This document shows, piece after piece, positions 2,485 through 27,530 of a stretch of 30,130 bases of DNA. Each line of letters opens with the position of its first letter. Positions within the stretch are counted from its first letter, which is position 1. Source of the DNA: a virus; the IMG/VR virus record IMGVR_UViG_3300027886_000012, one strand, 5' to 3'. The notes beneath the pieces were generated by a model that did not search any database, was not told where the DNA came from, and saw only the letters and a list, made by a program, of their open reading frames with translations. The translations under genes were made by a program, and so were the position numbers.

Positions 2485-3174
2485 CTAAATCTGCCCAGTA
2501 ATCTTTTTGATTATCTTGTCTCTGTCATTTCCACACATTCTGGCAATCTGGACGCAGTCTCTTATGTTCGGGTTGCTTATTGTATCAAAGACACATTCTC
2601 CGATAAACTCTGCAATCTCTTCTGTCACATTCTCTGTCTTTAGCTTTAACACTGTGATGTCCACAAATTCATCTCTTTGATATTCTTTCATCCTGATTAT
2701 CCAGAATCTTGATAGTAGTGCTGGTAGAATCCCTTTTGTGTTATTGGATGTAGCAATTACAGTTGTCTTAATCTCCATAGTTCCTCTCTTCTTTTTGTAC
2801 AGAGTTTCTGATACCATGCCACCTTCACATATGGATAGTAACAAAGTCTGGTCTTTTCTTGGCATCGTTTCAAGCTCATCAATTCCCAGAAATTCCAAGT
2901 TCGGGTTTTTGATTAACATATCACCAAGTCCAGCTCTTGATGTTCTACCACCTATGGCCAAGTGAAATTGTTTGCCATAGAATCTCTGCATATCTAACAG
3001 GAACTGTGTCTTTGCTATTGATACGGGTCCGACTAACAGTATATGTACTGGCTTTGGTGCATTGATAGCATCCATTATAGTTTCCTTTATTGCGTCGTGA
3101 CCAATTATGTTGTCAAACAGTTTTGCTTTTGGCTCTCCACCAAACGCATTTTTCACAAGTTGTCTTAGATTCAT
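2485..3174 (-). CDS. Stand-alone MCM-like AAA+ ATPase lacking the N-terminal domain
   Basis: HILLVGPVSIAKTQ (MCM-type Walker A with AK[ST]Q), TSRAGL, LGIDE (Walker B), VIATSN (sensor I), LLSRF (Arg finger). Confidence 0.7.
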   Translation of the reverse strand: MNLRQLVKNAFGGEPKAKLFDNIIGHDAIKETIMDAINAPKPVHILLVGPVSIAKTQFLLDMQRFYGKQFHLAIGGRTSRAGLGDMLIKNPNLEFLGIDELETMPRKDQTLLLSICEGGMVSETLYKKKRGTMEIKTTVIATSNNTKGILPALLSRFWIIRMKEYQRDEFVDITVLKLKTENVTEEIAEFIGECVFDTISNPNIRDCVQIARMCGNDRDKIIKKITGQI

Positions 3175-3318
3175 ATTCTATTCTACAGCTCCTCTCTCTT
3201 CGAAATACTTAAGGTGTTGGTAAAATTGTTCTGTGTCAATTCTCCATGTGTGGATTTAGACGGGGATATATTATGCATGATGAGACGACCGATTATTCTG
3301 CAAGAAACAATGGCCAAT

Positions 3319-3471
3319 TCATATATCCCCATTGTCTACCACCTTCATCGTATAGTACTCGGTCGTTCTTAGCTCAAACAGATGTTTGTTACAAACAGCT
3401 TTGCCCTTGTAAGATGAATCAGCTTTGCGCTTGCATCTCTGTCCACTCTCTGCAAACTTGCAAGTTGTCAT
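3319..3471 (-). CDS. Microprotein, 50 aa, C-C-C-H zinc-binding pattern (MTTCKF...RCKR...VCNKH)
   Basis: Translated by hand; ATGA overlap with the stop of the Cas4-like gene. Confidence 0.55.
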   Translation of the reverse strand: MTTCKFAESGQRCKRKADSSYKGKAVCNKHLFELRTTEYYTMKVVDNGDI

Positions 3472-4184
3472 TTTGGAAACATGCCCTCCCTTTCTTTTGT
3501 CCTAAGTGCTTCACATTCCTTAGCATATGGACAGTATCTGCACTGCCAGTTGTATTCTTCTTCATAGGCAATATGTCTTGCAATATTCGGGTCTTTGCGT
3601 TCGATAGCTTGCTTTAGTAATATTGCATCAGCCGTTAGCTTTGCTAACGTCTGTTCTCTCTGTGCCTTTGTCATTGTATGATTAAACTCTAAGAACGGTG
3701 TGTCACCAAAGTGTAACAAGCACTGTACGAGTATCTTACCCTTATCGCTGTCTGTCATTGCCATGTAAGCTTCAAGCTGACGAACGAAGTGAATCTTGGA
3801 CTTCTTTTTATCTGGATTTCGACCGAATAAGTCTTCTTCCTTCAAGTCTGCAATCCTGGCCGATTTGGCTTCAATTGGCATCCCTAATTCTTTATCGAAG
3901 ATATCAATGTGAGCTTCAAGTTCTCCAAGTTTTACTTCTTTCTCAATTTCAAACCTGTGCGGATATTTTTTAACCAAAGTCTGTAAAGCTCCATGTATAG
4001 CCTTTCCACTGGTAAAGAAGTTCAACTGTACATTATTCAACGGTAGCGGGTCAATCTTTTCATAGCATTTTTTCCTTGGACATAATAGTACATCTGATAC
4101 ATGAGTACCCTCTCTCGGTCTGTCGTACTCTTCATAAAGAGCATTGTACAGAATATTTAATAATTCCATTTGTGTTTCTTGCAT
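3468..4184 (-). CDS. cas4: Solo Cas4-like PD-(D/E)XK nuclease with 4Fe-4S cysteines
   Basis: THVSDVLLCPRK, GKAIH, HIDIFD, IEAKS, RQLEAY, CRYCPYAKEC; no cas1/cas2 or array nearby. Confidence 0.8.
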   Translation of the reverse strand: MQETQMELLNILYNALYEEYDRPREGTHVSDVLLCPRKKCYEKIDPLPLNNVQLNFFTSGKAIHGALQTLVKKYPHRFEIEKEVKLGELEAHIDIFDKELGMPIEAKSARIADLKEEDLFGRNPDKKKSKIHFVRQLEAYMAMTDSDKGKILVQCLLHFGDTPFLEFNHTMTKAQREQTLAKLTADAILLKQAIERKDPNIARHIAYEEEYNWQCRYCPYAKECEALRTKEREGMFPK

Positions 4185-4249
4185 TATTCTCTATAACCCC
4201 GCACTAATAAATAGGATTTTTGTAAGATTGTTCTAGTACTGTGTTTCAT
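4184..4249 (-). CDS. Possible 21-aa micro-ORF (MKHSTRTILQKSYLLVRGYRE)
   Basis: ATGA and TAATG coupling at both ends, but it also contains an operator-like half-site (4221-4236). Confidence 0.3.
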   Translation of the reverse strand: MKHSTRTILQKSYLLVRGYRE

Positions 4250-4323
4250 AGCCAGACACCAATTCCAATTCCCAACATTATACCTGATAGCATGTACAGT
4301 ATTCTCATTCTATACTCTGTCAA
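4246..4323 (-). CDS. 25-aa single-TM microprotein (MTEYRMRILYMLSGIMLGIGIGVWL)
   Basis: TTGA-coupled start with GGAGG SD upstream; hydrophobic helix. Confidence 0.5.
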   Translation of the reverse strand: MTEYRMRILYMLSGIMLGIGIGVWL

Positions 4324-4448
4324 TATTTAACAGCCTCCGCATAGCAATAACGGCATAAGGGTTTTCCCTTTTTGTCGTATAATGCTTCATTTTTTCCTAC
4401 TTCTGTTTCAAGCTCAATCTTGCATTTAGAGCATTTTGTCTTTGTCAT
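4320..4448 (-). CDS. 42-aa zinc-finger microprotein (CSKC...CRYC)
   Basis: Translated by hand; TAATG coupling; GGGAG SD. Confidence 0.65.
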   Translation of the reverse strand: MTKTKCSKCKIELETEVGKNEALYDKKGKPLCRYCYAEAVKY

Positions 4449-4615
4449 TATTCCCAAATCTCCCAAGTTTCATTCACGCCATCCCATCTCATAACTATGG
4501 TATTGTGACCATCCAAGATGATTTTCTCAAGTGCTGTGCCACACCAGTTACATGCTGTTTGATACTGTTCGTATAGTTTTGAGCAGTGTTGGCATCTATA
4601 AAATGTTAAAGTCAT
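4448..4615 (-). CDS. 55-aa zinc-ribbon microprotein (CQHC...CNWCG)
   Basis: Translated by hand; ATGA coupling; GAGGGG SD. Confidence 0.65.
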   Translation of the reverse strand: MTLTFYRCQHCSKLYEQYQTACNWCGTALEKIILDGHNTIVMRWDGVNETWEIWE

Positions 4616-4758
4616 TCTATAACATTCCCCTCTTCATCAGTAAACGTTCCCTGACAAGTCATTATTTTTTGCCATTGCTCCCAGCATGAGGCCCACATTT
4701 CGTTTGTATGTTCATCGGCTGGTCTATCACAATTTGCACAAGTAGGTATAGCGTTCAT
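4612..4758 (-). CDS. 48-aa Cys/His microprotein (CANC..H..C)
   Basis: Translated by hand; ATGA overlaps at both ends. Confidence 0.6.
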   Translation of the reverse strand: MNAIPTCANCDRPADEHTNEMWASCWEQWQKIMTCQGTFTDEEGNVIE

Positions 4759-4913
4759 AGCAATTCACTTTTCTCCAACAAGAATGTTTCTTCTGTTTGT
4801 GCATCATCAATAAACAAGCCCCAAGCTAATCTTATGTGTCTGTACGCTTCTCTCTTGCCTTCTATTTTCTCGCCACAACACTTACAGGTAAATATTGAAT
4901 CTTCTTTACTCAT
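4755..4913 (-). CDS. 52-aa microprotein with CxCC...H motif
   Basis: Translated by hand (MSKEDSIFTCKCCGEK...); GGGGGAG SD upstream. Confidence 0.6.
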   Translation of the reverse strand: MSKEDSIFTCKCCGEKIEGKREAYRHIRLAWGLFIDDAQTEETFLLEKSELL

Positions 4914-4914
4914 T

Positions 4915-5079
4915 TTATTCTCCCCCTACCTTAAAGCCGTGTTTTGTGATGTTAATACTCAAAGTCGCTGTAAACTCACACTGACACTGTGTACAAATAA
5001 AGTCCTGACCGACATTGTCGTCAAGCTTTGTGGGCCAGAAACACAAGTTCTCGCACTCTGGACAAGGTAATGTTGTCAT
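4915..5079 (-). CDS. 54-aa zinc-ribbon microprotein (CPEC...CTQC)
   Basis: Translated by hand; starts 24 nt after the PCNA stop. Confidence 0.65.
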   Translation of the reverse strand: MTTLPCPECENLCFWPTKLDDNVGQDFICTQCQCEFTATLSINITKHGFKVGGE

Positions 5080-5102
5080 CTATCTTATCACCAAAAGAAA
5101 GT

Positions 5103-5915
5103 TTAGTCCTGCACTCTCGGTGCTAGGTAGAAGTGTATTGTGCCGACATTGTTGTATCTTACTTCTATTTTCATTGGCATCTTTGTGCTGTATTCTATGG
5201 CAAGTGTGTCATATTTGTGGCTCATTACTGGCTTTATTGCTGTTATGAACTTCTTTAGATATTCATTTGAGTAGGTAGACATTGAGTTTTCTTTTATCTG
5301 CAACTGGTCTAGATAATTATAGGTTTCAAATTTGTTTTCTACTTCTCCTGAATCATCTTTTGAGCTTAGAGTCACTACGTTTTCGTTTGTGTCAATACGA
5401 ACATAGTCCTTAAGTGCTAGGAATTTCAGTATTTTCTTGATTCCTTCAGCGTTCAAGTTCATTTTGGCATTAAAGTTCAATTTTGGCAGTGGTGTCGTAC
5501 CTCCCATAGCTTCAAGTAATCTTATACTTGCTTTTTGACCTTCTTGCTTCAAGTGAAGCATGCCTTGTTCAAATACGAATTTTATTTCTTGTTTTTGCTC
5601 AAAGGTTCTTAGAATCTTACAAAGTTCGTCGAGATTGATTCCAAATTTTAATTCTCTGTCTACTTGTGTATAGTCATAAAAGGCATTGTATGGTATAGAC
5701 ACGTCAATTAAAGCAACGTGACTTGGGTCCATAGTCCTTATGTGCATTCCTTCGCTGTCAATTACGATGGTAGCTTCTTCGACCAGTGTACTTGTGGCTT
5801 GAAAAACGGCAAGTATTTCACTTGTGGTCTTTGCTACGAACATAGGTACCTGAATTATACAAGCTGAACTATTTTGTGCTTGTAGTTGTTGGTCATTGTT
5901 GTTTATTTCTTGCAT
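5103..5915 (-). CDS. pcn: Proliferating cell nuclear antigen (DNA sliding clamp)
   Basis: LVEEATIVIDSEGMHIRTMDPSHVALIDVSIP...FGINL and C-terminal FYLAPRV are canonical PCNA motifs; about 24-aa polar N-terminal extension. Confidence 0.95.
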   Translation of the reverse strand: MQEINNNDQQLQAQNSSACIIQVPMFVAKTTSEILAVFQATSTLVEEATIVIDSEGMHIRTMDPSHVALIDVSIPYNAFYDYTQVDRELKFGINLDELCKILRTFEQKQEIKFVFEQGMLHLKQEGQKASIRLLEAMGGTTPLPKLNFNAKMNLNAEGIKKILKFLALKDYVRIDTNENVVTLSSKDDSGEVENKFETYNYLDQLQIKENSMSTYSNEYLKKFITAIKPVMSHKYDTLAIEYSTKMPMKIEVRYNNVGTIHFYLAPRVQD

Positions 5916-15146: not shown

Positions 15147-17738
15147 TTGGAACTATATACTAGAGATATGTTAATTAATATTGATATAGAAGATAGTTCC
15201 ATGGTTAGAGAAGACGCTGGAACTACCGAAGGCAGAGAAGTTATCCAGACTGAAGAGCAACGACTTGATGCAGAATTCTTTCTTAAACAACTTGTCAAAG
15301 AGCCAAATATTCCTATTGAAACGTTAGCAAGTGAGATAGACCCACCTATACCCGTAAAGACGGCTGAAGGTATACTTGAGGACTGTGCAAAATTACTGGT
15401 AGGAACTGTTAAAGACGCTGATTATCCTGAACGTGTTAGAAGTTTTTATAATAATGGCGCTAATCCTGAAGACCAGCTTACGCCACAGGATATGATGACT
15501 TTGCTTGATGTCGTGGCCAACAAGTATCATTCGAAATTAATGACAAAGAAACATGCTGATAGAGTAGGCGCCAAAATGAGAAAAATGGGATTACCTACAA
15601 CTAGAGAACCCTCAGAAGAAGCTATGCAAGAAGTGCCCCCTAACTCTGGTGTAATACCCCCTGCTCCTACTCCAGTGACAGCTTCAGGACAGCCTTTTCC
15701 ACCTCAAACTACAGCATCAGGACAGCCATCTAATACTGTATGGGTAGCCACAGATAATCGAGCGTCGGTTCCCTATACTCCGCCACAACCACAACAATCA
15801 GGACCTCAAGCACAGCAAATATACGAAAATGAAGACTCTTTGATGAAATTCCTACTTGAAGTAAATCATGCCATAAATCCACAGCAATTATCAAAGATAC
15901 CCTACTTTATGATGATGTTCAGAACTACTAAATGGCAGTGGATGAAAAACCCATCGAAATTACTTATGTTTCTAAAGAGTACTTTCGGTCCTGTGCCTGG
16001 CGAAACAATATACGTTCAGTTTATGGATATGAAGTCTCAGGTATCATCCGACCCTCAGAATCTATATAGGTTAACTGGAGCGTCTGAATATACCCCGTTA
16101 AATCCAGTAGAAAACCTCATGCCCAATATGGGTGGAATGAACCCAATGCAGGGTATGATGAACATGATGAATGAGTCACAAGAAGGTTACGATGGATATG
16201 AAAGTGCTCGCGAAAGACGGATGGACAGACTCATGGAACGCATGCTCAAAGCCAAATATATGACTATAATGGAGCAAATGGGTACAAACCAGAACGCCAA
16301 TGGTAACAATCAAAATCAGTTCTTTAATCCCTATGAATATGATGTCTTTGAAGACTACGATAAAGACGGCCGAGTAATCGCCAAGCGATATGTAAGAAAG
16401 CTCAATCCCTACGGTCAACCAATGACGAACGGTGAAAACAATGGAGGTGGTATGACTCAGACAATGCTCGAACTATTCAAACTAATGCACGGCCAGAGTC
16501 AAGCACAAAACAACCTCTTACTGGAGAAGGTGTTAACCAATAGCAGTGGAAGTAATAACGGTATCAATGACCTGTTACAGACGGTTCTAAAGCAGACCAT
16601 GGGAGCTATTACCCAGCAAACCGACCCGTTAGCACAGTTCAATAGAACACTTGACTTGGGTGAGCGTATATACCAGATAAGAAACCAGAATCAGCGTCCA
16701 CAGTCAATAGAAGAAAAGAAGCTCGAGCTTGACTTCTTATTGGCCAAAAAGGAGTTAGAATCAGCCGAAGGTAAGGAGCAAAGAGAATGGACACGACAGC
16801 AACAAGAGTCAGAGAATGCTAATAGAAATGTTGACACCGTAATAAAAGAAGTAGGTGGCGCTGTTAAAGAAATAGCTGGACCAATACTTAACACAGTTGC
16901 GGCCGCCTATGGTAGAGGGTTAGCTGGAACGGGTGGTGCACCTCAGATGGACCCAAGAATGCAGAGACCGCCGCAACCTCAACAGGTAATCATACAGCAA
17001 CAACCACAGCCACAAGGTCAACCATCAACAATATCAGAGATGATGGCCGAAGAAGATAGAAGGGCAGAAGCAAGCAGACGTGCAGAAGAAGAATACAGGG
17101 CAAGACAGAATATGCCACAAGGTCAACCACAGCAAGAATACATAGACAACCGACCCGTTGAAGAACAATTGAAAGATTATGATGATGACCAGTTAGATGA
17201 AATGGCTTACCGTGGTGAAGTCACATTACAAGAACATGAACGTATATTTAATCAGGTAATGAAAGAGCGTGCAAGAAGAAAAGGTATGGGAGTTCCAGTG
17301 CCACAGAGAAAATACATAAGTCCTGTGGTTAATGAAATAGCCCAGCACGAACAACAAAGGTATGCACAGCAACCGACCCCAGAGTCAATCGAGTCAAAAT
17401 ATGATGTATTTGCCCCAGAAGAGCAAGATGTTAACATGAGTGAACCAAAGCCATCAGCACTCGACACATCAATACCAGATGATGAACGTATCTCAATGAG
17501 CACACAGGAACGAGAAGCAATGCAGTTATCTGGTGAAATTGAAACACGTAGAGAGGGTTCAAGCTTCGGTACACCAGCAACCGAGAATATAGCACCAGAA
17601 GCCAGAGACGATGTGGAAGAACAACTAGAGGAAGTACATGAAGAATCTCAACCTGAGCCAGAAAAAGCCGTGGTTGAAGTAATCGAAGACGAAGCTATCG
17701 AAGAACCAGTATACGAAGAAGTAGTCGACGAATCATAG
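15147..17738 (+). CDS. Large low-complexity protein (P/Q/N/M-rich, coiled coil, acidic tail); real start may be ATG 15200
   Basis: 863-codon ORF; TASGQP and PQGQP repeats; E/D-rich C-terminus. Confidence 0.85.
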   Translation: MELYTRDMLINIDIEDSSMVREDAGTTEGREVIQTEEQRLDAEFFLKQLVKEPNIPIETLASEIDPPIPVKTAEGILEDCAKLLVGTVKDADYPERVRSFYNNGANPEDQLTPQDMMTLLDVVANKYHSKLMTKKHADRVGAKMRKMGLPTTREPSEEAMQEVPPNSGVIPPAPTPVTASGQPFPPQTTASGQPSNTVWVATDNRASVPYTPPQPQQSGPQAQQIYENEDSLMKFLLEVNHAINPQQLSKIPYFMMMFRTTKWQWMKNPSKLLMFLKSTFGPVPGETIYVQFMDMKSQVSSDPQNLYRLTGASEYTPLNPVENLMPNMGGMNPMQGMMNMMNESQEGYDGYESARERRMDRLMERMLKAKYMTIMEQMGTNQNANGNNQNQFFNPYEYDVFEDYDKDGRVIAKRYVRKLNPYGQPMTNGENNGGGMTQTMLELFKLMHGQSQAQNNLLLEKVLTNSSGSNNGINDLLQTVLKQTMGAITQQTDPLAQFNRTLDLGERIYQIRNQNQRPQSIEEKKLELDFLLAKKELESAEGKEQREWTRQQQESENANRNVDTVIKEVGGAVKEIAGPILNTVAAAYGRGLAGTGGAPQMDPRMQRPPQPQQVIIQQQPQPQGQPSTISEMMAEEDRRAEASRRAEEEYRARQNMPQGQPQQEYIDNRPVEEQLKDYDDDQLDEMAYRGEVTLQEHERIFNQVMKERARRKGMGVPVPQRKYISPVVNEIAQHEQQRYAQQPTPESIESKYDVFAPEEQDVNMSEPKPSALDTSIPDDERISMSTQEREAMQLSGEIETRREGSSFGTPATENIAPEARDDVEEQLEEVHEESQPEPEKAVVEVIEDEAIEEPVYEEVVDES

Positions 17739-18204: not shown

Positions 18205-19368
18205 ATGTCCGATAACACTGGGAAGACAGTATTACTTGTAGGTGCAGGGTTCCTTGGCAAGTTCTTTTTATCCGAATGGCTCGGTAATCCCTATAACAAG
18301 CTAATAGTGATGGATAAGCAAAGAAAGGGAGACTTCTTTGGCCATCCTCTTTTACAAAACTATGAGAAAGACGATAGGATAACATATGTCTGGGGTTCAT
18401 CAGGTGACCCGCAACAGTTAGAGAAATTCTTTAAAGAAGACAAGATAGACCATATTGTCTATACTGCGGCCATTGCTGACGTGCCATATGCAAGAACAAA
18501 CCCTAGAGATACACAGATAACAAATATTGACAATCTGGGTATATTTCTCAACTACATCGGCGACCAGCATTTTACAGGTAAAATTGTGCTAATGAGCTCT
18601 GAATCAGTATATGCCAAAAAGCCAGAAGGCACACCAGAAGAAGATATCCCGTTTAAAGAAACCGACTCGACTGAAGGACATTCTATATACGGTAAGAGCA
18701 AGCTTGGACAGGAAGAACAGGTGCATTTGGCCGAAAAGAAGTACGAGTTCCTTAATGCCACAATCATAAGAAGTGCTACCATGTATGGCATGTTTGCCCG
18801 TGCCGAACAGGTTATTCCTACTTTCATAAGACAGGTACTGACAAAAGAGCAGATAACGTTATTCGGCGATGGTAAGCAAACATCACGAGACTTTATTCAT
18901 GTAACAGATACGGTTAACGGTATTATAGCGATTCTAAACGCTAATGACTCTGTAACAAGTGGACAGACATTTAATATAGCCTCTGGACGCGAAACATTCC
19001 TTCTAAATCTGGCCAATGCGATTAAAACACTTGTAGGACAGCCCACAGAAGCATTTGACGCAAAGAAAGGAATTCCAGCAAGTGGATTTGTGCCGATAAA
19101 GTTCTTAGACTTTCTGCCTGGCGAAAAAGGCGCGCGTATGGTTCTGAATATTGAAAAAGCCAAAAAGAATCTAAAGATGATAGACCATGGTAAGGAAGTT
19201 GCGTGGGAACCGCAGGTAGACCTGATAAACGGCCTGCGAAGTACAATATTCTGGACTTGTAGTGTAATAGGCTATGATGAACAACAGATGGAAGAAGTAG
19301 AGCGCGTAATATACCCTGAGCACTTTAAAGGACGTTCAGAAACAAATCCGCTTGGCAATAGAGCGTAG
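18205..19368 (+). CDS. NAD-dependent nucleotide-sugar epimerase/dehydratase (extended SDR)
   Basis: VLLVGAGFLG, YTAAIADV, SSESVY, YGKSK, TMYG, RDFIHVTD, FNIASG. Confidence 0.9.
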   Translation: MSDNTGKTVLLVGAGFLGKFFLSEWLGNPYNKLIVMDKQRKGDFFGHPLLQNYEKDDRITYVWGSSGDPQQLEKFFKEDKIDHIVYTAAIADVPYARTNPRDTQITNIDNLGIFLNYIGDQHFTGKIVLMSSESVYAKKPEGTPEEDIPFKETDSTEGHSIYGKSKLGQEEQVHLAEKKYEFLNATIIRSATMYGMFARAEQVIPTFIRQVLTKEQITLFGDGKQTSRDFIHVTDTVNGIIAILNANDSVTSGQTFNIASGRETFLLNLANAIKTLVGQPTEAFDAKKGIPASGFVPIKFLDFLPGEKGARMVLNIEKAKKNLKMIDHGKEVAWEPQVDLINGLRSTIFWTCSVIGYDEQQMEEVERVIYPEHFKGRSETNPLGNRA

Positions 19369-19377
19369 GTAACGTCT

Positions 19378-20208
19378 ATGGCGTGGGAATTCCGTGGCTA
19401 CAGAAATCCAGATGAAACTGATATTGTTATCTGTATTCCACATACTGGGAATGTAAGATTTGACTGGGCTTTATCGTACAAACATTTGGATATGCCACCA
19501 AATCATCATTTTATCTCCAGTGGAAATCAAGGTCAGCCAATACATATAGCAAGGAATATCTTTGTGACGCAAGCCTTACAGAGAAAAGCAAAGTACATTT
19601 TCTTCTTGGACTCTGACGTGGAAATGCCACATGATGGACTCGTAAGGTTACAGCAATCAAAAAAACCTATCATAGCTGGTATCTATTCTACAAGAAGTCC
19701 GCCGTACGGACTATCGGCCAATATTAACAGAAGACCATTAATGCCAGATATCCTAGAGAAATATCCAGACAGAAATATTGATGTTCATGAGATAGGTATG
19801 GGATGCGCTCTTATCGATATGAGAGTTATAGAGCGAATAGCACGGGATTTAAAACTACAGTGGTATTGTATGAAGCCACATGGTAAGGAATTAGGATTAA
19901 AGACAGAGAACCAAACAACGCCAAAGGAAATAATGGTATATACCAACGACGAAGCAGTAAATCAACAATGGCACTGTAAAATCTGCAATTCATCGATTAT
20001 AGCCGACTTTTTCAAATATACTGTAGGCACTGGCCTATCGGCAATAGAAGGCGCATATTCTGAGGACTATTATTTTTGCCATCTTGCCAAAAAGGTTGGC
20101 TTTCCTATTTTCATTCACACAGGTGTATTCTGTACTCACGAGTTATCGAACATGAAGATTACCAGAGAAGGACTGGTTAATCCAGTAGCGAGTGCGATGG
20201 AGATATGA
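19378..20208 (+). CDS. GT-A fold glycosyltransferase (family 2-like)
   Basis: VICIP, IARN, FFLDSD (DxD), GMGCALI, SEDYYFC. Confidence 0.8.
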   Translation: MAWEFRGYRNPDETDIVICIPHTGNVRFDWALSYKHLDMPPNHHFISSGNQGQPIHIARNIFVTQALQRKAKYIFFLDSDVEMPHDGLVRLQQSKKPIIAGIYSTRSPPYGLSANINRRPLMPDILEKYPDRNIDVHEIGMGCALIDMRVIERIARDLKLQWYCMKPHGKELGLKTENQTTPKEIMVYTNDEAVNQQWHCKICNSSIIADFFKYTVGTGLSAIEGAYSEDYYFCHLAKKVGFPIFIHTGVFCTHELSNMKITREGLVNPVASAMEI

Positions 20209-20399
20209 GTTTTTCAATAGATGAACCAGAAAAGAAACTACTAACAGAGTTAGAACACTGGCTAGACAAAAGGCGGTACAAGTACGTGGAGCGCTGGAAT
20301 TTCAATCAGGATGACTTGGTAAACGAAGCAAAACTAGCTGAGGATGTTGCAATTCTAAGTAAAATTGACAAGTTGAGAAGGGAGTTTAGGATAAAATGA
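20205..20399 (+). CDS. Hypothetical protein, 64 aa
   Basis: ATGA overlaps at both ends within the glycosylation operon. Confidence 0.65.
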   Translation: MSFSIDEPEKKLLTELEHWLDKRRYKYVERWNFNQDDLVNEAKLAEDVAILSKIDKLRREFRIK

Positions 20400-21553
20400 A
20401 AATCTGTATTATATCAAGTTCTGCAATTCCAGCATTTCCAGACCCGAACTTATATAGCGGACTTGAAGTGGTCGTTTCTAATCTGGCGGCCGAACTTGCT
20501 AAAAGAAAACATCAGGTATATCTTATTTCATCGAAAGGAACAACGATGCCTGGCACTTGGGAATATGAAGACGAAGCTACAAAAGAAAAACTCGGAACAC
20601 TCGAAGTAAGAGAAACAGTTGACTCAACATGGGATGGCATGGGAGAGATAAATCATTTCATTGCATACAAAGACTGGGTTATAGAAAACTTCGGCGATGG
20701 TGACGGAATAGTATTAGATTCTACATGGCAGATGTTTGGTTACTTGCTGGTCAGTGGATATGATGATAAAATACTTAGTGGAAAACTAACGGTTAAACCA
20801 AATCCGAAAATGAAGATATTACACTTACATCATGGCGTACCTAACGCGACTTCAAAGCCACCAGTAAAATGGCCACGCATGTTAGGACTGTCAAAAACAC
20901 ATGCTTTGTGGCTATCATCAATAATGAGAACTCCAGCACGCTATCAATGGAACGGAATTCCATTACCCGATATAAAACCAGAAGAGATAGTGGATGATGG
21001 ATATTTCCTATCACTAAACAGAATCACAGAAGAAAAGGGTATACATGACTCAATTGATGTGGCCGTCCAAAACAACATGCCGATAATAGTAGCAGGTGAC
21101 GATATTCATGTCAGCAGTCAGGATTATGTTTCACAGATATTAGAGCAATGTCGTAATTCTGGCGGACTTGCAAAATACGTCGGTTCAATTGACAATCATA
21201 CAAAGGCTGATTTACTAAGACGCTGTCATGCGGTTATATCATGTCCTGTTAATCAGGGGCCAAGAGCATGGATAGAAGGATTTGGACTCAATGTAGTTGA
21301 AGGATTATCATACTACAAGCCGTTTATCGGCACTGCTAACGGTGGACATCTGGACATTATAGAACATGGTAAACAGGGGTTCTTGGGTATGACACCTGCC
21401 GAAGTAGCCACATTTGTGCCGAAAATCGGCGAAATAGACCCAAATGAATGCAGAAAACGGGTAGAGGCTGAGTTCACGATAGAGCGTATGGGTGAACGGT
21501 ATGAAACAATGTTTCAAAAAATTGCAAATGACGACTTAGATTCACGCTGGTAG
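20396..21553 (+). CDS. GT-B glycosyltransferase (family 4)
   Basis: YSGLEVVVSNLAAELAKRKHQV; LNRITEEKG; EGFGLNVVE; GGHLDIIEHG. Confidence 0.9.
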   Translation: MKICIISSSAIPAFPDPNLYSGLEVVVSNLAAELAKRKHQVYLISSKGTTMPGTWEYEDEATKEKLGTLEVRETVDSTWDGMGEINHFIAYKDWVIENFGDGDGIVLDSTWQMFGYLLVSGYDDKILSGKLTVKPNPKMKILHLHHGVPNATSKPPVKWPRMLGLSKTHALWLSSIMRTPARYQWNGIPLPDIKPEEIVDDGYFLSLNRITEEKGIHDSIDVAVQNNMPIIVAGDDIHVSSQDYVSQILEQCRNSGGLAKYVGSIDNHTKADLLRRCHAVISCPVNQGPRAWIEGFGLNVVEGLSYYKPFIGTANGGHLDIIEHGKQGFLGMTPAEVATFVPKIGEIDPNECRKRVEAEFTIERMGERYETMFQKIANDDLDSRW

Positions 21554-22972: not shown

Positions 22973-23977
22973 TCACTTTATTTTTTTTCCGATAAATTCT
23001 ATAATTCCAGGAATTACAGAATTACCAAGCATTTTGTATCTTTGAGTGTCACTAATATCTCCAACCTTAGTCCAGTTATCTGGAAAACCCATAAGTCTTT
23101 CACATTCTAATGGTGTGAGTTTTCTAATCTTTTCATGCTCAATTATCTTTGGCTGTGCGCGTCCGCCCGCGGGTGTGACTAGAGAAGGTGATAATCCGTT
23201 CTTATCGTAGACTCTATCACGTGAAGAACCACAATCAACAATCGCCATTAGGTCACCACTTGTATCAAGTGACCAAGTGCTATCTCTATCCTGAATTCTT
23301 TTTTTAATATTTGCTTTTGAATGTGACATTAGAATCATTGTTCTGGAACCGCCACCTTTCCAGTAGTTGTAATCGATTGTTCGAGTATATGGACTCCGAA
23401 TCCGTGACCCATCTGTTTGTGTTTGTGATAATGTGCTATCATCGACTTGATAGCCGTCGGTGATAGGAAATACTGGCGCGGTGGGTTTTTCTCTAAGATG
23501 TCCAATAATGAAGACTCTCTCACGGCTCTGCGGAACAAAATATTTCCCGTTGATAACTTGCCATTCGACATCGTACCCCAAGTCATAAAGCGTATTGAGG
23601 ATTGTTCCGAATGTTTTTCCGTTATCGTGTCCAAGTAATCCTTTAACGTTTTCAAGGAATAGGATGCTAGGTCGTTTTTCTCGCGCAATCCTAGCAATCT
23701 CAAAAAATAACGTTCCTCTCGTGTCATTGAAGCCCAGTCTTTGTCCAGCAACAGAGAAAGATTGACAGGGGAATCCAGCGGTGAGGATGTCGAATTCTGG
23801 CAAACTTGTGGCATCCAGTTTTCTAACGTCGTTTGGTCTGTTACTCTCTCTGAAGTTGTGATTGTAAACACCTACGCAATATCTATCTATTTCACAACTA
23901 GAAATACATTTGTGTCCGCATCTTTCTAACCCTAATCTAAAACCACCAATACCAGCAAAAAGGTCAAAGAACTTCAT
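22973..23977 (-). CDS. dcm: C5-cytosine DNA methyltransferase (orphan)
   Basis: Motif I FDLFAGIGGF, IV GFPCQSFS, VI ENVKG, VIII QSRERVFIIG, IX LTPLECERLMGFP, X KMLGNSV. Confidence 0.95.
   Translation of the reverse strand: MKFFDLFAGIGGFRLGLERCGHKCISSCEIDRYCVGVYNHNFRESNRPNDVRKLDATSLPEFDILTAGFPCQSFSVAGQRLGFNDTRGTLFFEIARIAREKRPSILFLENVKGLLGHDNGKTFGTILNTLYDLGYDVEWQVINGKYFVPQSRERVFIIGHLREKPTAPVFPITDGYQVDDSTLSQTQTDGSRIRSPYTRTIDYNYWKGGGSRTMILMSHSKANIKKRIQDRDSTWSLDTSGDLMAIVDCGSSRDRVYDKNGLSPSLVTPAGGRAQPKIIEHEKIRKLTPLECERLMGFPDNWTKVGDISDTQRYKMLGNSVIPGIIEFIGKKIK
23335..23871 (-). CDS. Overprinted +1-frame ORF inside the MTase gene; resembles the beta polypeptide of two-frame C5-MTases (M.EcoHK31I type)
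   Basis: 178 stop-free codons; SLKT...WGTMSNGKLST...SSLLDILEKNPPRQYFLSPTAIKSMI; GTG start directly after TAG. Confidence 0.65.
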   Translation of the reverse strand: MFTITTSERVTDQTTLENWMPQVCQNSTSSPLDSPVNLSLLLDKDWASMTREERYFLRLLGLREKNDLASYSLKTLKDYLDTITEKHSEQSSIRFMTWGTMSNGKLSTGNILFRRAVRESSLLDILEKNPPRQYFLSPTAIKSMIAHYHKHKQMGHGFGVHILEQSITTTGKVAVPEQ

Positions 23978-24555
23978 AACTTCGTGTAAATATTCAAAGC
24001 TCTTATCTCATTATTTGGAACCACTGTTATCAGTATGAGACCAATTCTTTTCAGTGTTGGCGGACAGTGTTGATAATTCTGCGTGCATAGTAAGAATAAC
24101 AAAGATTTTCGTTTAACAACACGGGCTCCAGCTTTTAGTAATTTCATAAGAGAAGGTAATTCACATTGATAGTATTCTTTGGCAGTCTTTTCATTATATG
24201 GTGGGTCACATCTCCATCTTTTGAAACTGTTATCGTCTATATGTTCTAGAATTTGGGCATCTCCCAGTAATAGAGGACTGTTATTTGCTTCACTATCTAC
24301 AGTGAAAGCTCCGTCTTTAACAGTACCACTGCATACTTCTATTACATCAGAAGCTGGAAGTTTTCCGAATACCGCATCAATCATTTCCAGATATTTGTGT
24401 GGATAAGCGCCACCGCGTCTTCCCAAAAGACGAACATGACCGCTGATAAAATTATTAATTACATAGATGATACCAATTGCTGGCTCAGCTCTTATTACAT
24501 AATATTCAGTAATTGGTATTGGTGTCTTTTTAATAAAATCTAATACTTGCACCAA
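23974..24555 (-). CDS. N6-adenine/N4-cytosine DNA methyltransferase (orphan)
   Basis: GAYP, VIEVCSGT (motif I-like), GDA, DPPY; overlaps the dcm start by 4 nt. Confidence 0.8.
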   Translation of the reverse strand: MVQVLDFIKKTPIPITEYYVIRAEPAIGIIYVINNFISGHVRLLGRRGGAYPHKYLEMIDAVFGKLPASDVIEVCSGTVKDGAFTVDSEANNSPLLLGDAQILEHIDDNSFKRWRCDPPYNEKTAKEYYQCELPSLMKLLKAGARVVKRKSLLFLLCTQNYQHCPPTLKRIGLILITVVPNNEIRALNIYTKL

Positions 24556-25811: not shown

Positions 25812-27530
25812 ATGATGGCCACAACGCTTGACTATGAAGATAAAAACATTATTGGAAATGCTAGCTGGAAGGTATTACACGCATATTCAAAACAATACCC
25901 AGAGAATCCAGCTCAAGCGGATAAGAAAGAGTTCCATACACTATTGAAGTCAGTATTAAGAACAATACCAGACGATGATTGTAAATGTCGAACTCATGCC
26001 GTAAATTATATTCAAAAATACCCGCCAAAGATAGCCAATAGAGATGACTTGGTACAATGGGTCTGTTCATTTCATAATGACGTTAATAGAAGGTTAGGAA
26101 AACATGAATTTGACTGCAAGATTCTCTTTGAAAAGAAGCCGTGTAAGACATGTAAACCAACACAAGTAATTCAGGATAAAGACGCCCAGTTGAAAACCGT
26201 TATGGGTGATTATAAATCACTATCAATAAAAGTCTTCGAAGAAATATGTAAGAGGGAAGCTCTTCCTACGCCTACAATAGTTTTTGCGCCGTGTCCTACC
26301 GCCACTCATACATCATGTACAACTATGGTCGTAAATAAAAACACACAGGATGTTAACCTAAAACAAAAACCAGTAGTATACATCAATCCATCTAATTTTG
26401 GCTTACGCGTACTTGGTCACGAAGCATTCCATTATATCAAAAAAATGAAGAATGAAAATCATCTGGCCATCGACGAAGACGAAATTGAAAAGCTCACACA
26501 AGAGATTATTACAAAATATTTCCCTGCCGATACTTACGATAAAAACACGAAACAACTGATTCAACCAATGGTGATGAAAGATAGTCTACTAGTAGCAAAG
26601 CAAGAAAAGCCCACAGTTGAACCTATGCATAATTTCGAAAAGAGCTTTAACACCAAGAACTTTAGACGCAGATATAGAGAAGCAATTCCAGAAACATTTC
26701 CAATGTACAGCAAATTCAGACAAAAACATGGTAATAATATCGGCGATGAACCTGACGAAGAAGGCACTCATGATGATACAAGTGTTCCTAGAGGCGGAAT
26801 ACTATCTTATTTTGACGGAATATTCGAACCATTTGCAAAATTATTACACATCCCTGCGCGAGAAGTTAACATAGCAAATACACCTAACATATTTTCAGGT
26901 GGTGTAAATGTTTTCATAAATGGCAATATGAGTCCATTTGGTTCGGTAGTAACTACAACATTACTGGGTCTGGGTTTGTTTACAGCAATTGCAATTAACA
27001 AAGAAGGAATTGGTTTTGAAGACAGACGTCTGTTAACAGAATTGGGTGGATTATTCCTATGGTCAGGATTAGCACATGTAAATGATAAAACCGTACAACA
27101 AGATGCACGAACAGCGGGTAGTGCACTTGCAGTGATGGACTTTGATACTGTAAAACAATTGATGGGTAAACAAAGCATGGTGACTCAGGCAGAAGCTGGA
27201 ATACAAGCACGACAGCAACAAAGAAGTAGCATAGGTGCTGGTAGAAGCAGTGGAGGTACAGTAGGTGGTATTGGCCGTGCAGTTGCACAAAGACAGTTAG
27301 AAAAAGACGCTGGTGTGAGTACAAGACCAGAAGGTGGCGGAATATACAAAAACTTTGGCAGTGGCGCAGGTGTAGCAACACCAAGAAATAGTGGTACTGG
27401 TGGAGTAGGATTTAGTTATTCTCCAATAATTGATAACATTGGATTATCGCCAGAAGAAAAAGAATTGTTAGAGAGTCAGGGTTCACCCACTGAATCTCTG
27501 TATTACGGTGATGCAGAAGATTTAGTCTAA
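25812..27530 (+). CDS. Erv1/ALR FAD sulfhydryl oxidase domain + zincin (HExxH) domain + membrane/Gly-rich C-terminus
   Basis: GNASWKVLH, PDDDCKCRTH, WVCSFHNDVNRRLGKHEFDC; CKTC; VLGHEAFH; two hydrophobic segments; Gly-rich tail. Confidence 0.8.
   Translation: MMATTLDYEDKNIIGNASWKVLHAYSKQYPENPAQADKKEFHTLLKSVLRTIPDDDCKCRTHAVNYIQKYPPKIANRDDLVQWVCSFHNDVNRRLGKHEFDCKILFEKKPCKTCKPTQVIQDKDAQLKTVMGDYKSLSIKVFEEICKREALPTPTIVFAPCPTATHTSCTTMVVNKNTQDVNLKQKPVVYINPSNFGLRVLGHEAFHYIKKMKNENHLAIDEDEIEKLTQEIITKYFPADTYDKNTKQLIQPMVMKDSLLVAKQEKPTVEPMHNFEKSFNTKNFRRRYREAIPETFPMYSKFRQKHGNNIGDEPDEEGTHDDTSVPRGGILSYFDGIFEPFAKLLHIPAREVNIANTPNIFSGGVNVFINGNMSPFGSVVTTTLLGLGLFTAIAINKEGIGFEDRRLLTELGGLFLWSGLAHVNDKTVQQDARTAGSALAVMDFDTVKQLMGKQSMVTQAEAGIQARQQQRSSIGAGRSSGGTVGGIGRAVAQRQLEKDAGVSTRPEGGGIYKNFGSGAGVATPRNSGTGGVGFSYSPIIDNIGLSPEEKELLESQGSPTESLYYGDAEDLV

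Follow-up and report, generated by a model that had tools for sequence, protein, structure and literature searches.

A viral cytosine methyltransferase gene with a conserved overlapping frame that likely encodes a second subunit

The 1-kb gene of a viral C5 cytosine DNA methyltransferase is likely to encode two proteins, alpha and, from an overlapping gene nested within it, beta, which together would form an alpha/beta heterodimeric methyltransferase. C5 methyltransferases are textbook single-chain enzymes. We show here that the +1 frame of this gene is conserved and under purifying selection at the protein level. We infer that beta is initiated separately, binds alpha and is required for activity. 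The gene lies in a 30,130-nt stretch of viral DNA from soil metagenomes (IMG/VR virus record IMGVR_UViG_3300027886_000012), called the window below, with the following features:

22973-23977, minus strand: alpha gene, a 334-aa C5 cytosine DNA methyltransferase
23335-23871, minus strand: beta ORF, 178 codons from stop to stop, in the +1 frame of alpha (stop codon 23335-23337)
23974-24555, minus strand: gene of a DPPY-type DNA methyltransferase, 193 aa

The alpha gene and the frame nested in it

Alpha matches the C5 methyltransferase family PF00145 over its full length (residues 1-334, E 1.7e-84). Its motifs occur in order: I (FxGxG, residues 7-12), IV (PCQ, 68-72), VI (ENV, 109-111), VIII (QxRxR, 150-159), IX (255-272) and X (GN[AS]V, 284-321). 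An earlier note, made from the letters of the window, held that the main frame retains motif IX. This is borne out, since alpha carries RVYDKNGLSPSLVTPAGG at residues 255-272, and motif X is also kept in the main frame. In a structural model of alpha alone, the catalytic domain is predicted with pLDDT above 90 and residues 176-273, the small domain, with pLDDT below 50. The TGA stop of the DPPY-type methyltransferase gene directly upstream (phrog_3816 'DNA methyltransferase', 3.2e-16; no recognition by Pfam) overlaps the ATG of alpha (ATGA), so the virus has two coupled methylases.

The beta ORF is nested wholly inside 22973-23977 and ends in ..VPEQ*. It covers alpha residues 36-214, from ahead of motif IV (PCQ), past motifs VI and VIII, into the variable region. 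The dual-coding stretch exceeds 170 codons and alpha is not truncated. The same note had reported a 537-nt stop-free alternative frame, which we found at exactly its coordinates in the +1 frame, and translation agrees that main-frame KPTAPVFPI reads KNPPRQYFLS there. The sequence is identical, with no variants, in contigs of three soil metagenome DNA runs, two of which may be its source, showing that the stretch is not an assembly frameshift. No RNA run is listed among the public sequencing runs that carry it.

A +1 run of at least 178 codons was observed in 5e-5 of synonymous shuffles and in 6.5e-4 of codon-order shuffles (20,000 each). In the shuffled gene, the longest run averaged 63-69 codons for the +1 frame and 36 for the +2 frame. 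Since a scan of great size could turn up a single such gene by luck, the comparative evidence is decisive.

Conservation of the +1 frame and selection on it

The earlier note had proposed a database search with the product of the alternative frame, and this search returned many relatives: a profile of the product collected 1030 proteins at E <=1e-3 from 1.84 billion cluster representatives. A search with the product itself gave one database protein (P0001), 63% identical and encoded on a 721-nt contig where the gene caller chose the +1 frame. By tblastn, 138 phage records and 65 plasmids were matched, mostly from Firmicutes and including one Methanomethylovorans plasmid. These matches fall under annotated cytosine-methylase genes. 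For Streptococcus phages IPP14 and Javan6, for instance, the annotation shows a single gene there, which is matched in its +1 frame. Beta residues 30-139 are also matched by phrog_16143 ('DNA methyltransferase', 139 positions, E 3e-14), indicating that products of this frame are occasionally called as phage genes; its label is only generic, whereas the records of IPP14 and Javan6 that were inspected list the main-frame gene alone.

A +1 run of at least 120 codons is present in 75 of 80 related loci, as counted with a looser motif search that included loci fetched later. In nearly all viral loci that encode main-frame homologs and in which motif VIII was located, the open +1 stretch across this motif measures 130-267 codons, as against about 19 for the +2 frame. 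The +1 frame remains open at the matching place in relatives with as little as about 40% identity, among them methylase genes annotated in Streptococcus phages. Stops in this frame in homologs, which the earlier note had named as evidence against its reading, were found in neither close nor distant ones. In L082-L085, whose main-frame identity to the window is 58-65%, the +1 frame is open over the same span with an identical stop position, and the ORF end is shared by five relatives in this identity range. When 32 diverse relatives were shuffled synonymously, the observed length was reached in 0 of 3000 trials for 20 of them, and P was at most 0.005 for all except four GC-rich members (P 0.01-0.03), P values which overstate independence since the sequences are related. 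Both the ORF and its motif persist over GC contents of 0.33-0.61. The window fits a viral clade defined by a +1 frame open for at least about 130 codons across motifs IV-VIII and by '..WG...NG..lT......SLSDILE..v..KYFLS'. The feature is not peculiar to the window gene but belongs to a large viral clade.

Two other observations were made on these relatives. In the close relative L081, a 721-nt ENA contig, the +1 frame is intact but the main frame has TAA at the Glu codon of LFLENVKG; this TAA may be a sequencing error or mark a decayed copy. Compared with window positions 23078-23332, the C-terminal alpha modules of L082-L085 are shuffled: the motif IX module and the 'LMSH..NIK.RIQ..W.LDTSG' module vary from relative to relative in presence and can be reversed in order.

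Synonymous variation across homologs, which the earlier note had suggested examining, is suppressed in the overlap. We compared sequence pairs at residues with an identical main-frame amino acid and scored the fraction that also share the codon. By divergence class, this fraction was 0.47, 0.51, 0.60 and 0.83 in the overlap against 0.33, 0.36, 0.45 and 0.57 outside it. The excess holds within each amino acid (e.g. Gly, 0.52 vs 0.27; Val, 0.48 vs 0.26). Along the gene (the index of this profile being alpha numbering + 2), the same-codon fraction ranges from 0.25 to 0.42 in the C-terminal part outside the overlap and from 0.42 to 0.59 through most of the overlap itself, and it peaks at 0.87-0.89 at alpha 159-178, under the +1-frame DILE..KYFLS.

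To measure protein-level conservation in the second frame, +1-frame identity among 37 sequences of less than 65% identity was compared with that in synonymous-shuffled versions of the same genes, a null which removes the built-in shadow of main-frame conservation. The excess is largest in one segment:

23438-23587, minus strand: strongly constrained dual-coding core, alpha 131-180 and beta 96-144

The values for each region are given below; the compared sequences are related, so the z-scores overstate independence, which leaves the contrast between regions within genes unaffected.

Core, alpha 131-180: observed 0.472, null 0.272, z 41
Alpha 36-95: observed 0.284, null 0.233, z 15
Alpha 96-130: observed 0.289, null 0.236, z 11
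Motifs I-II: observed 0.242, null 0.234, z 1.4
C-terminal control: observed 0.200, null 0.202, z -0.7

The recognition-domain element and its place in C5 methyltransferases

In ordinary enzymes, the conserved start of the target-recognition (small) domain, 'L.DILE..KYyLS', is located about 17 residues past motif VIII. This element is absent after motif VIII from the main frame of the window. At its site alpha has the unrelated TDGYQVDDSTLSQTQTDGSRIRSPY, followed by the next canonical piece, TIDYNYWKGGGSRTMI. As judged from its sequence, then, alpha is without the conserved small-domain start. A counterpart is found in the +1 frame:

23461-23514, minus strand: beta 120-137, SSLLDILEKNPPRQYFLS, putative start of the target-recognition domain, on the nucleotides of alpha 155-173 (VFIIGHLREKPTAPVFPIT)
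23395-23457, minus strand: beta 139-159, predicted long helix TAIKSMIAHYHKHKQMG then GHGFG, resembling the Dcm-like '..KH.a.GNGFG'

The earlier note had pointed out a resemblance to the LxDILE..YYLS element of C5 methyltransferases. Profile-profile comparison of the +1 family (A3) with single-frame enzymes (A4) upholds it, with a probability of 84% and an E of 7.5e-6, and aligns beta RESSLLDILEKNPPRQYFLS.. and RESSLLDILEKNPPRQYFLSPTAIKSM.. opposite canonical RKPRLQDILEKNVHKKYTLS.. and RKPRLQDILEKNVHKKYTLSDHLWKYL.., respectively. Single-chain Dcm-type enzymes of PF00145, such as L064, have the same catalytic motifs as the window. In the loci of this type (L064, L068, L071, L072, L076 and L078), which are without the +1 ORF, the +1 frame is instead full of stops and the element is in the main frame, about 17 residues past motif VIII. 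These single chains share 'L.DILE..v..KYyLS', which in the Dcm-like ones is followed by '..KH.a.GNGFG', a main-frame element in the Dcm-like canonical relative L076. Conservation of the corresponding '..KHK..G.GFG' of beta is confined to the window's own subclade. Among the 120 closest main-frame homologs of alpha, none has the 'L.DILE..KYyLS' element in the main frame; among homologs it occurs in the main frame or in the +1 frame, never in both. By these comparisons the core of beta is homologous to the canonical small-domain element, and beta appears to carry the start of the recognition domain that alpha lacks.

Part of the resemblance to SLLDILE is built in, because AT-rich codons for FIIGHLR automatically spell SLLDILE when read in the +1 frame. 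The shuffle null of the identity test corrects for this contribution. Such codons may have been the seed of the element now written over motif VIII.

Searches with beta in other resources were uninformative. Pfam returned only Arm_2 (0.011) and Ta1207 (0.095), both below cut-off and neither meaningful, and a beta profile had no match at E up to 10 among the sequences of solved structures. In a model of beta alone, residues 1-95 have pLDDT below 50, a hairpin is predicted at 97-110 and helices at 121-154 reach 82-89.

Several proteins retrieved with the beta profile continue in frame into C5 methyltransferase motifs IX-X. For three of them the DNA was checked: motifs I-VIII are encoded one frame back, with a stop soon past motif VIII. 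In these split-type proteins the Pfam C5 methyltransferase model starts matching at '..SLLDILE..KYYLS'. The split-type relatives L069, L086 (773-1747), L087 (275-1540) and L088 (450-1652) have a main frame ending shortly past motif VIII and a +1 frame that runs through the whole recognition domain and motifs IX-X, so that their overlapping frame is half of the enzyme. For six proteins that combine beta-like sequence with motifs IX-X (P0133, P0134, P0143, P0179, P0233 and P0239), we also considered frameshift errors of assembly; these were judged unlikely, collectively rather than protein by protein, since these sequences have diverged, stem from separate samples and do not switch frame at a common place. 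A further protein, P0175 (611 aa), has, all in one frame, an N6/N4 methyltransferase domain, C5 methyltransferase motif I and beta-like sequence, and represents either a fusion or an assembly with a frameshift.

In the literature covered here, only two natural exceptions to the single-chain rule are named, M.AquI and M.EcoHK31I (PMC3404938). In M.EcoHK31I, from E. coli HK31 (YGGCCR), beta is encoded wholly within the alpha gene in a different frame, and the enzyme requires both chains (PMC2836561). Its alpha contains motifs I-VIII and X as well as the TRD, with motif IX left to beta (PMC3404938). The chains must associate for activity, and the N-terminal part of beta has a role in this association and not in catalysis (PMC2836561, PMC3404938). 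The analogy with this enzyme drawn in the earlier note is correct in kind, beta being nested in an alternate frame of alpha in both (PMC2836561). As compared with the published layout, the window likewise has a beta ORF nested entirely in the alpha gene. The motifs are distributed differently, however: alpha of the window keeps motifs IX and X, and its beta, which has no motif IX, would supply the TRD start. No enterobacterial record was obtained when plasmids were searched with beta by tblastn.

M.AquI (CYCGRG) also consists of two chains, divided within the variable region (PMC3404938). A division of this kind, with motifs I-VIII in alpha and the TRD and motifs IX-X in beta, is seen in the relatives L069 and L086-L088 and not in the window. 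No long dual-coded stretch is reported in the description of M.AquI (PMC3404938), in contrast to the more than 170 dual-coding codons of the window. A literature search of incomplete coverage found no general description of overlapping genes in C5 methyltransferase genes.

Initiation and docking of beta, alternative readings and viral context

We propose that beta, of about 159-178 aa, would be translated separately from a start located between motifs II and IV. Among relatives, 55 of 73 have a +1-frame ATG preceded by an SD-like motif, as against 27.5±4.0 in synonymous shuffles. Of 66 SD + ATG sites, 33 lie 100-109 codons upstream of motif VIII, most of them at 100-105; motifs II and IV flank the variable stretch in which this cluster sits. 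The methylase genes annotated in the cultured Streptococcus phages IPP14 (L089) and Javan6 (L090) share a conserved AAGGAG-N12-ATG in their +1 frame, a candidate start of the second protein there, and GAGGAG-N10-ATG occurs in other loci. The shortest +1 ORFs begin just upstream of the SD + ATG cluster, which accounts for about 100 weakly constrained codons staying open. The conserved ATG in '..KSTNM..' was also considered as a start signal and rejected, as it alternates with ACG via the wobble base of a main-frame Tyr codon.

In the window, two of the three candidate starts are:

23869-23871, minus strand: GTG, first codon after the upstream TAG, the candidate start proposed in the earlier note
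23812-23814, minus strand: ATG, codon 20 of the ORF, candidate beta start 94 codons upstream of motif VIII and near the SD + ATG of relatives

The third is an ATG at 23727. The ATG at 23814 is at least as likely a start as the GTG at 23871; no SD-like motif was found at a +1-frame start in the window. Beta residues 13-20 (QTTLENWM; 23812-23835, minus strand) are a candidate PCNA-binding (PIP) box, whose Gln is not kept in the closest relatives (..SDMTLDMYM.., ..NQMVTLDNFM..). This segment ends at the likeliest ATG start and lies upstream of it, and thus may never be translated.

The first 95 or so residues of beta, weakly constrained, are probably floppy. Its core would comprise two parts, a beta-hairpin (WG.MSNGK..T) and the missing element SLLDILE..YFLS with its helix. 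Beta would dock on alpha beside the motif VII/VIII strand and the start of motif X, completing the hinge and the small domain, and the active enzyme would be the alpha/beta heterodimer. A model of the alpha + beta complex scored 0.83, against 0.30 for the best control, and passed a mark reached by 58 of 80 solved complexes and by 2 of 110 mismatched pairs; the alignments for the two chains came from the same DNA in the same row order, so that shared codons could mimic co-variation. Model runs agreed in at least 57% of contacts, with a beta pLDDT of 61-63. Three segments of beta contact alpha in the model: residues 92-104 pair with alpha 136-143, residues 125-136 pack on both the start of motif X (alpha 283-295) and alpha 168-176, and residues 160-167 lie beside alpha 213-218. 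The strongest contacts, between alpha 136-141 and beta 97-101, are close to the shared-codon diagonal. The contacts of beta with motif X resemble solved single-chain C5 methyltransferases, and this portion of the score may stem from similarity to known structures. The modelled interface (beta 92-136) falls on the constrained core, whose identification did not draw on the model.

The alternative that survives best, although we consider it unlikely, is that beta is real and conserved without being a methyltransferase subunit, acting instead as a regulator of the methylase or in an unrelated overprinted viral function. Selection on the frame shows that it codes for something and no more, and alpha, having all ten motifs, could be active alone; residues 1-95 of beta, moreover, have no recognisable fold. 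The constrained core is nevertheless homologous, by profile comparison, to a structural element of C5 methyltransferases, which is present in the main or the +1 frame and never in both. The same frame runs into motifs IX and X in L069 and L086-L088, and the complex model passes its controls; all of this argues for a subunit.

Somewhat less probable again is programmed ribosomal frameshifting into the +1 frame, yielding an isoform with the N-terminus of alpha and the C-terminus of beta. It would fit the many relatives whose +1 frame is open almost from the alpha start and the window with no SD-like start, and in split-type relatives one shift would be enough to place motifs I-VIII, the TRD and motifs IX-X in a single chain. 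The positions of the motifs argue against it: the FIIG strand of motif VIII and SLLDILE share nucleotides, and no single chain can hold both. A single frameshift rebuilding the canonical chain was ruled out on this ground, FIIGHLR..FP and SLLDILE..YFLS being on the same nucleotides. The enrichment of SD + ATG sites in the +1 frame at a homologous place also speaks for separate initiation, and beta of M.EcoHK31I has its own start codons (PMC2836561).

It is highly improbable that the ORF is a non-functional shadow of main-frame conservation and codon bias, since, despite a naturally stop-poor +1 frame, the SLLDILE that AT-rich FIIGHLR codons yield and an openness of weak significance in GC-rich relatives, shuffles keeping protein and codon usage almost never reproduce the ORF and miss the similarity of the core, the non-overlapped control has no excess, and ORF and motif persist across the whole GC range.

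Returning to the heterodimer, a broader proposal, to which we give slightly better than even chances, is that such overprinted-beta enzymes are the rule in a very large viral and plasmid clade, nested beta being a detachable hinge/recognition module. The clade would span bacteria and archaea. Production of beta would act as a switch or fine control on an enzyme that otherwise looks complete, and its location over motif VIII would ensure joint inheritance and production of both chains. Should the second gene be genuine, many viral and plasmid 'dcm' genes, those of well-studied Streptococcus, Clostridioides and Bacillus elements included, are mis-annotated as one gene. Cloning from the annotated protein sequence alone, as in a codon-optimised gene, would destroy beta, and the resulting enzyme might be inactive or altered in specificity. 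The locus would also represent a clean natural case of long and ancient dual coding with both products in one enzyme, useful for studying the origins of overprinting.

The feature would moreover extend to viruses with archaeal-type replication genes. The largest ORF of the window (15147-17738, 863 aa) has no Pfam match. Besides the methylases, the window encodes PCNA, an MCM-like P-loop ATPase, a PD-(D/E)XK nuclease, an Erv1/Alr oxidase, an epimerase and a glycosyltransferase, in three blocks:

2485-5915, 18205-21553 and 25812-27530: gene set listed above

This gene content suggests an archaeal-type virus, and one main-frame homolog of alpha comes from a Nitrososphaeria virus.
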